A stretch of DNA of 32,000 bases, taken from positions 480,001-512,000 of the forward strand of contig NZ_CP043316.1 in the NCBI RefSeq assembly GCF_008189405.1, in the 5' to 3' direction. The notes under the pieces were generated by a model. It saw only the letters and a program-made list of their open reading frames with translations, was not told the origin of the DNA and did not search any database. The DNA comes from Candidatus Saccharimonadota bacterium (GTDB lineage: Bacteria > Pseudomonadota > Alphaproteobacteria > CAJXXZ01 > 1604HC). The position numbers and the translations under genes are program-made. Every line of letters begins with the position of its first letter. Within the stretch, counting starts at the first letter, position 1. Below are positions 27,485 through 28,362 of this stretch, piece by piece.

Positions 27485-27599
27485 GTTGGCAGCGTCCTAC
27501 TCTCACATGCCTCAGGGCACACTACCATCAGCGCTGGAAGCTTTCACTGCCGAGTTCGGGATGGAATCGGGTGGGTCTTCTTCCGCTATGACAACCAAC
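27485..27599 (-). rRNA. rrf: 5S ribosomal RNA
   Basis: The reverse complement reads GTTGGTTGTCATAGCGGAAGAAGACCCACCCGATTCCATCCCGAACTCGGCAGTGAAAGCTTCCAGCGCTGATGGTAGTGTGCCCTGAGGCATGTGAGAGTAGGACGCTGCCAAC. It has the universal CCGAAC, GUGAAA, GAUGGUAGUGUG and GAGAGUAGGA blocks and a closing helix GTTGG/CCAAC. This GC-rich island sits in an AT desert. The ends are accurate to about 2 nt. Confidence 0.93.
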
Positions 27600-27660
27600 A
27601 TATTTAATCTAACAGTTTTGACATTCTTTGTCTATACTTTTTATAGATTTTTTAATATTT

Positions 27661-27688
27661 ATTATAAAAACCAAATGATAAAAATCAA
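27661..27688 (-). promoter_or_regulatory. Candidate sigma70-type promoter for the 5S gene
   Basis: On the minus strand, TTGATT (27688-27683) is followed by a 16-nt spacer and TATAAT (27666-27661), about 60 nt upstream of the mature 5S 5' end. Such matches also occur by chance in AT-rich DNA. Confidence 0.25.
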
Positions 27689-27778
27689 AACCATAGTATT
27701 TTAGGAAAACATATGCAAATAATGATATATTTCACTATGCTCATAAAACATTCCTTAGTATATATATTTCACTATGCT

Positions 27779-27816
27779 TATCTTTCTATGTATCTTTCTA
27801 TGTATCATTCTATATG
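27779..27816. repeat. 12-bp tandem repeat (tatctttctatg x2 plus a degenerate third copy)
   Basis: Read directly: 27779-27790 and 27791-27802 are identical, and 27803-27816 is degenerate. A 17-bp direct repeat atatatttcactatgct precedes it at 27725-27741 and 27762-27778. Confidence 0.8.
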
Positions 27817-28362
27817 CTCATTTCAACCCATCTTCTTACAGATCCACCTACCAATAAACTCATAATTAAACTTACATGTTCATAATCATTGATTGATAAT
27901 AAAATCACTATGCAATATGAAATATTTATTCAAGAACAACCTATTCCTGCAAGCACTATCAATATAAATGAATGCACCTATCAAACACTATAATATGTAG
28001 ATTTACATACTACCTACTAGAATAAATACTTATAGGTCAGCAGCATAAGTTGTATAATTGACATTTATGCATAATTTTCTATACAGTAATCAAATTTGCA
28101 TACAGTATTATGCGTATAGCATCAATTGATATATGAGTTATGATATATATTGTTATAGCTTAATTTAATATGATAATTCAGTATGTCCTAAAGAATCTAC
28201 TAAAAATAACAGTTATTATATTCACAACAACAAATTGATCACAATATAACACTAATCAAATTCGTAATAATTTATATAGAAATTAAATAAAAATTTAGTA
28301 AAAAAAATCAATCGATTGTAAATAATCGACTGAAACAGTTAAAATCTCTAAAACAATAGAGG

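Follow-up and report, generated by a model that had tools for sequence, protein, structure and literature searches.

A free-standing 5S rRNA gene with a predicted promoter of its own in Candidatus Cytomitobacter primus and related reduced genomes

A 5S rRNA gene with no 23S rRNA gene beside it is present in a 32-kb stretch of the Candidatus Cytomitobacter primus genome (hereafter, the window), and is likely to be a functional, independently transcribed gene. It is probably the only 5S rRNA gene of this organism, as judged from the copy numbers in its relatives. Ribosomal protein S9 of the window is encoded on OX638200.1 (GCA_951805245.1, 622,378 bp), which the Darwin Tree of Life note lists as Ca. 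Cytomitobacter primus and which comes from an endosymbiont living in Diplonema japonicum (PMC13598402), a diplonemid and thus a marine protist, and the closest named S9 proteins are those of C. primus and C. indipagum. The Cytomitobacter lineage belongs to Holosporales according to 16S rRNA and is nested inside Rickettsiales in GTDB, a position regarded as unsupported by the authors of the paper dealing with the GTDB placement (10.64898/2026.01.29.702485). The Rickettsiales frame of the initial annotation is therefore inexact: it agrees with the GTDB nesting, but not with the assignment of Ca. Cytomitobacter primus to Holosporales by 16S rRNA.

The 5S rRNA gene occupies positions 27484–27599 of the minus strand (116 nt, 56% G+C). 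In a cmscan search of the window, it matches the Rfam family RF00001 over model positions 1–120 of 120 with a score of 73.5 bits (gathering threshold 38, E = 5.9e-14), and the 5S genes of the relatives described below score 75.6–79.1 bits. The gene had previously been placed on the same strand at 27485–27599, and the Rfam match is 1 nt longer. The sole RNA gene besides 5S in the window is tRNA-Arg(TCT) at 25057–25130 (minus strand).

The absence of a 23S gene from the neighborhood of this 5S gene, as first noticed by inspection, is substantiated by two kinds of search. With E values of up to 10 allowed, an Rfam scan detected neither LSU nor SSU sequences in 26000–30000; a covariance-model scan of 27600–28362 had been posed beforehand as the test that could refute the absence, and no 23S sequence was found there. 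Over positions 218,288–268,145 of the record (49.9 kb, reaching 13.2 kb upstream of the 5S gene and 36.6 kb downstream of it), no 16S or 23S gene was detected by Rfam or by blastn, and the Rfam matches consist of 5S and three tRNAs and nothing else. The blastn probe was a gammaproteobacterial 16S plus 23S sequence, which picks up 23S genes from several phyla in metagenomic contigs. Likewise, about 40 kb of C. primus and Nesciobacter abundans sequence, added around window-end genes and gyrA homologues, contains no rRNA gene. In a canonical rrn operon, 23S lies immediately upstream of 5S on the same strand, an arrangement that the C. primus 5S gene lacks. Remnants of 23S in the spacer upstream of 5S were also considered, and none were detected by the permissive Rfam scan or the 23S/16S blastn probe.

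The spacer (27600–28362, upstream of 5S on the minus strand) is 763 nt long and has a G+C content of 23.6%, compared with 56% for 5S and 29.8% for the window. This agrees with the earlier description of about 760 nt of very AT-rich non-coding DNA followed by rpsI, which begins at 28363. The spacer contains no ORF of at least 60 aa except a spurious one overlapping 5S and no RNA-family match, and no conservation of the spacer was seen in relatives; repeats and small ORFs were sought in both spacers flanking 5S and nothing convincing was found. The predicted 5S promoter (see below) is located at the 3' end of the spacer. Three direct copies of about 19 nt each, 37–40 nt apart, occur at 27726–27821 (plus strand, TATATTTCACTATGCTCAT; 5S strand, ATGAGCATAGTGAAATATA), and have no apparent function. 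Intergenic spacers of 650–760 nt are common in the 622-kb C. primus genome.

The rpsI gene for ribosomal protein S9 (28363–28890, minus strand; NCBIfam NF001099, E = 1.9e-47) has rplM upstream. A terminator scan of 1.5 kb yielded two sites, versus 0.2 expected, both just past rpsI, and the rplM–rpsI intrinsic terminator at 28300–28333 (minus strand) consists of a 10-bp stem followed by T8. Co-transcription of rpsI and 5S was a further candidate arrangement, and was rejected on account of this terminator and the non-conserved synteny. The spacer, save for the predicted promoter at its 3' end, and rpsI, which had been described together with 5S, are accordingly not parts of the 5S unit, as rpsI has its own terminator and the neighbors of 5S differ from genome to genome.

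Some features of the surrounding protein genes were observed in passing. The S9 family model covers residues 47–175 of 175 of the window ORF (28363–28890, minus strand) and the L13 family model covers residues 30–168 of 177 of its neighbor (28877–29410, minus strand), both leaving an N-terminal extension; C. primus S9 is 146 aa in the NCBI annotation, shorter than the window ORF. These extensions may be over-extended start codons, or lineage-specific. Three large ORFs of 880, 700, and 446 aa (12610–15252, minus; 19699–21801, plus; 18230–19570, plus) have no Pfam match or merely faint leucine-rich-repeat matches, and their products are candidate host-interaction proteins.

The same orphan state is seen in related genomes. 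A 29-nt 5S pattern was scanned over 185,579 species-representative genomes, and the single-copy counts come from four relatives, with one match apiece: C. indipagum (CP043315), OZ247501 (621,866 bp), OZ247489 (619,361 bp), and CP060235 (HK-STAS-PROT-4, 558,489 bp). Two matches were returned by the same scan in multi-operon control genomes. Rfam searches of 8–20 kb per locus found no LSU near the 5S genes of these four genomes (loci L007 for C. indipagum, L029/L003 for OZ247501, L021/L004 for OZ247489, and L034 for CP060235); at control loci of Pseudohongiella, Rfam places 23S directly upstream of 5S, 120–410 nt away. The occurrence of this state in four related complete genomes, with one pattern match each, bears out the view of the initial annotation that the 5S gene is free-standing.

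The genes next to 5S are different in each genome. They are rpsI in C. primus, recA in OZ247501, opposite-strand hypothetical genes in OZ247489, small ORFs in C. indipagum, and tRNA-Ser in CP060235, rpsI being a neighbor of 5S in C. primus only. In OZ247501 and OZ247489, 5S is 6 kb from rpsI on the opposite strand, and in C. indipagum no 5S gene is present within 10 kb of rpsI. GyrA identity is 78–84% among the four Cytomitobacter-like genomes, 71–73% between these and CP060235, and 64–68% between these and N. abundans, in which no 5S gene was found in the 22 kb examined. The orphan 5S gene is common to Cytomitobacter and CP060235, and the orphan state is therefore older than their split.

CP060235.1 itself is an activated-sludge MAG of 558 kb, HK-STAS-PROT-4, which is labelled 'Alphaproteobacteria bacterium'. 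Its GyrA is nearer to that of Cytomitobacter than the Nesciobacter protein is, and it carries a TAGACA 5S promoter, as Cytomitobacter does. HK-STAS-PROT-4 probably belongs to the same protist-endosymbiont family as Cytomitobacter.

Comparison of the five 5S sequences provides modest evidence for selection. The canonical 5S structure (36 pairs) was imposed on these sequences and the pairs were then counted, because RNAalifold alone did not recover the canonical fold and the MFE was uninformative; the MFE fold of 5S plus trailer was no better than that of shuffled sequences (z = 0.19). In helices I–V, 90.6% of cells are paired, and compensatory double changes occur at 9 of the 36 pairs, in all five helices. 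None of 500 shuffles matched these pairing and double-change values, and controls with slid partners were 31–40% paired. Compensatory substitutions thus keep the canonical 5S helices, which suggests that the gene is under selection, with the modest force that five sequences allow. This covariation is consistent with purifying selection acting on a functional 5S rRNA.

A promoter-like element directly precedes 5S in all five genomes. In C. primus, it consists of the -35 hexamer TAGACA (27629–27634, minus strand), which is invariant in the five clade genomes, and the extended -10 element TGtTAGATT (27606–27614, minus strand; TG at 27614–27613, hexamer at 27611–27606). The conserved form is TAGACA-17 nt-TA(G/C/T)A(T/A)T (27634–27606 in C. 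primus), in which the -10 positions T1, A2, A4, and T6 are invariant, and TGn precedes the -10 hexamer in four of the five. Apart from these two blocks, the alignment of the flanks is near-random, and the 17-nt spacer itself is unalignable. The pattern TAGACA-N17-TANANT has a single match in the window, where 0.2 are expected, and no clade locus has a match other than the one upstream of 5S.

With the 17-nt spacer, the proximal promoter matches the consensus at 9/12 to 11/12 positions across the genomes, and the C. primus hexamers, TAGACA and TAGATT, are imperfect (9/12). In these genomes, 3.2% of random positions score at least 9/12 in the allowed geometry, and promoter-like matches are near chance in this AT-rich DNA (18 versus 12.9 ± 3.6 in shuffles). 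Sigma-70-type promoters have a spacing of 17 ± 1 nt and a start 5–9 nt past the -10 hexamer; the spacing is found here, and the predicted start, the 5S nucleotide G1, is the 7th nucleotide past the hexamer. TAGACA-N17-TAGATT is thus the predicted 5S promoter.

The distance between the -10 hexamer and 5S is fixed. The hexamer ends 6 nt before G1 in all five genomes, and position -1 is always T. From this geometry, with a purine at +1 and a pyrimidine at -1, we infer that 5S transcription begins with the G at 27599 (minus strand), which is the mature 5' end, or with an adjacent nucleotide. An earlier candidate, TTGATT-16-TATAAT (27661–27688, minus strand; 10/12 consensus match), had been proposed as the 5S promoter. 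No equivalent is seen in C. indipagum, OZ247501, OZ247489, or CP060235, and this lack of conservation is the reason for rejecting it as the main promoter. The more general proposal that a free-standing 5S gene must have a promoter of its own and mature by a non-canonical route is supported, in that 5S appears as a self-contained unit.

The 3' side of the gene is T-rich. In C. primus, a T6 run (27478–27483, minus strand) lies directly past the 3' end of 5S, with helix I closing 1 nt before it, and is a candidate termination signal in combination with this helix. The corresponding runs are T7–T8 in C. indipagum and OZ247501, T4 in OZ247489, and T3 then T5 in CP060235, where the run is interrupted (TTTAAATTTTT). 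In the first 8 nt past 5S in six genomes, T occupies 39 of 48 positions, compared with a background of 0.42. A terminator scan revealed no hairpin terminator downstream of 5S in C. primus, C. indipagum, or OZ247501; all of the control 23S–5S operons have a G+C-rich hairpin and a T-run 12–15 nt past 5S. Ordinary terminators do occur in C. primus, as exemplified by the 10-bp stem and T8 after rpsI. At 5S, the U-run is present and a local hairpin is lacking, the adjoining stem being the long-range helix I. Termination of transcription at the T-run, with helix I serving as the stem, is given a less than even chance because this site falls outside the formal definition of an intrinsic terminator.

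tRNA genes of the clade have a comparable layout. They are preceded by a TTGnnn -35 element, a 17-nt spacer, and a -10 hexamer ending 8–9 nt before the tRNA 5' end, and most have a T-run directly after the acceptor stem. For the tRNA-Arg gene of the window, the upstream region 25131–25185 (minus strand) offers TTGCTA-17-GATAAA, or TAAAAT ending 6 nt before +1. Further promoter-abutted tRNA genes lie at 13254–13325 in L082, 5697–5769 in L083, 6310–6381 and 7375–7448 in L002, 12203–12276 in L004, and 370–459 in L034. Six of eight first-in-unit tRNAs score at least 8/12, as do 15.6% of random positions. This layout suggests near-leaderless tRNA transcripts in the clade. Even so, C. indipagum has an RNase P RNA (1330–1717 in L002). 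As the arrangement of a promoter set against the gene is shared by tRNA genes, stable-RNA genes here seem in general to form short units, each with its own promoter.

A second orphan 5S gene was found outside the clade. In a metagenome scan using a second 5S pattern (5S 3'-end), the matches are mostly from unrelated bacteria with ordinary 23S–5S linkage, and the sole further orphan is in VYLZ01000004.1 (L063), a 604-kb contig of 29% G+C from a tiny-genome alphaproteobacterium. At 1480–1939 of this locus, tRNA-Cys and tRNA-Glu are followed by 5S and then tsaD, and no 23S was detected in 12 kb around 5S. The 5S promoter candidate, TTGCGC-17-TATTAT, also ends 6 nt before G1, and co-transcription of 5S with tRNA-Cys and tRNA-Glu is possible. 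L063 GyrA is 44–47% identical to that of the Cytomitobacter clade, roughly the distance of Pelagibacter, and 57% identical to that of an endosymbiont of the moth Tiliacea citrago. In the L063 relatives L085–L088, no 5S gene lies next to tsaD or gyrA, and the 5S position in L063 is therefore specific to it. L063 may represent an independent loss of the 23S–5S link, and VYLZ01000004.1 may have reached the same 5S geometry independently. In another contig, from an unrelated metagenomic bacterium (Ga0172380_10000163; L051, 27–183), the 5S 3'-end pattern matches twice at a distance of 137 nt, shortly past the 3' end of a 23S gene, an arrangement resembling two tandem 5S genes or a partial duplication.

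Other explanations of the C. primus locus can be weighed against these data. In one of them, 5S is cut from a longer precursor, which would start at TTGATT-16-TATAAT, with some 55 nt of leader, or arise by read-through from rplM–rpsI; an RNase E/G-type enzyme would then cut within the AU-rich leader and trimming would release 5S, as from E. coli 9S RNA, and the conserved block would be a processing signal. The 10/12 consensus match at 27688–27661 is in keeping with this explanation; in addition, RNase E-type enzymes would find a suitable substrate in an AU-rich leader, and rRNA operons usually have tandem P1/P2 promoters, as in E. coli rrn. But the upstream promoter candidate is missing from all four relatives, read-through would have to pass the strong hairpin and T8 after rpsI, and linkage of rpsI to 5S is not conserved. 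The conserved block, with its two hexamers at a fixed distance of 17 nt, unconserved spacer, and TGn, is promoter-like and unlike a processing stem. A precursor-derived 5S is thus considered unlikely. An artefact of assembly or binning, in which repeat misassembly joined 5S to this locus, deserves hardly any credence. Misassembly at rRNA loci is a well-known problem of short-read MAGs, but no evidence supporting such an event was found here, and the flanks of 5S are ordinary single-copy DNA. Moreover, C. primus is represented by a closed 622-kb long-read assembly (PMC13598402), and the same orphan state appears in five independent assemblies from different projects.

A more serious question, which still carries a low probability, below that of a precursor, is whether the orphan gene represents an additional or degenerating copy, the working 5S being in a canonical 23S–5S pair elsewhere in the genome. 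Unlinked 5S extras beside intact operons have been documented, as in Francisella (PMC3479022), unequal 5S counts are seen in 23.6% of rrnDB genomes (PMC2686494), and the C. primus 23S gene was not located within the 49.9 kb scanned. Against a spare copy, all four related complete genomes give a single 5S-pattern match by a scan that reported both copies in multi-operon controls. Compensatory changes hold the 5S structure across genomes with 71–84% GyrA identity, the 5S promoter is conserved, and a genome of 620 kb is unlikely to retain a spare 5S. A functional, separately transcribed 5S gene therefore remains the favored explanation.

Dispersed rRNA genes are known in several other organisms. 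In Leptospira, rrs, rrl, and rrf are scattered and each is presumed to be under its own promoter (PMC2229662, PMC2686494); as in C. primus, a bacterial 5S gene is far from 23S and presumably has its own promoter, in this case in a low-copy, slow-growing organism (PMC2229662, PMC2686494). Unlike C. primus, a 0.6-Mb alphaproteobacterial protist endosymbiont, Leptospira belongs to Spirochaetota, is free-living or pathogenic, and has a genome of 3.6–4.6 Mb. For C. primus, the placement of a promoter right against the mature 5' end and the role of the 3' T-run are predictions from sequence. In Thermoplasma acidophilum and Nanoarchaeum equitans, all rRNA genes are apart and individually promoted (PMC2686494), with 23S and 5S at least 6 kb apart in Thermoplasma (PMC7761764); these differ in being archaea with archaeal promoters and RNA polymerase. 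Francisella has three operons and one unlinked 5S sequence (PMC3479022), which is supernumerary beside complete operons, whereas the C. primus 5S appears to be the sole copy.

Break-up of rRNA operons goes with symbiosis and genome reduction (PMC8303192, PMC7761764, 10.1101/705046). In Rickettsiales, Buchnera, Wolbachia, and Helicobacter, 16S is split off and 23S and 5S stay together (PMC8303192, PMC7761764). Such split-16S lineages keep the 23S–5S pair (PMC8303192), whereas in C. primus the 23S–5S link is what broke. The two large surveys of unlinked rRNA genes scored 16S–23S linkage only (10.1101/705046, PMC7761764), that of Brewer et al. without any mention of 5S. In the literature searched for Cytomitobacter, Nesciobacter, and Holosporales, no statements on rRNA gene order were found. 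Unlinked, individually promoted 5S genes are thus already known from Leptospira, Thermoplasma, and Nanoarchaeum, and are apparently unreported for the Cytomitobacter group; the potentially new twist is the predicted leaderless 5S design only.

The 5S genes transcribed by eukaryotic Pol III provide a further comparison. They are stand-alone genes whose transcripts begin with the mature 5' end and terminate in a T-run that follows the gene immediately, which leaves little or no processing to be done. Pol III 5S transcription uses an internal control region and TFIIIA. The likeness to C. primus is a functional analogy only and not homology; the predicted C. primus promoter is an upstream element of bacterial sigma-70 type.

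In the preferred explanation, that of a functional, independently transcribed gene, 5S would have parted from 23S in an ancestor of the Cytomitobacter lineage, the sludge MAG CP060235 included. It would since have traveled as a compact module of about 155 bp, composed of a sigma-70-type promoter (-35 TAGACA, 17-nt spacer, and TGn-extended -10 TAGATT), the 116-nt gene, and the T-run. With RNA polymerase initiating at the mature 5' end or no more than one nucleotide away, endonucleolytic 5' processing of the RNase E/9S type would be needless. At the other end, helix I and the U-run would most likely halt transcription, or a few U residues would remain for exonuclease trimming. A tentative extension, which we consider possible but doubtful, is that 5S in the Cytomitobacter lineage is processing-free, the primary transcript being approximately the mature 5S RNA with a 5' triphosphate. 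The corresponding prediction is a 5' triphosphate at G1 and no precursor. If true, such a 5S gene would be for bacteria what the Pol III 5S gene is for eukaryotes, and, together with the similarly arranged tRNA genes, would point to a general minimal design of stable-RNA genes with less reliance on RNase E/G-type processing in 0.6-Mb genomes.

Breakage of the 23S–5S link is much rarer than the splitting off of 16S, and papers on Rickettsiales-like endosymbionts state that the 23S–5S pair is always kept (PMC8303192). The present analysis indicates that a protist-endosymbiont lineage has lost this link, as probably has a second reduced genome, and, as far as gene neighborhoods and flanking motifs reveal, that 5S appears to move about the genome as a promoter–gene–T-run module. 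For annotation, this explains why 5S is missing from where pipelines expect it. For the biology of these endosymbionts, it bears on how 5S stoichiometry is kept without co-transcription, and on how dispensable the rRNA maturation machinery becomes during genome reduction.
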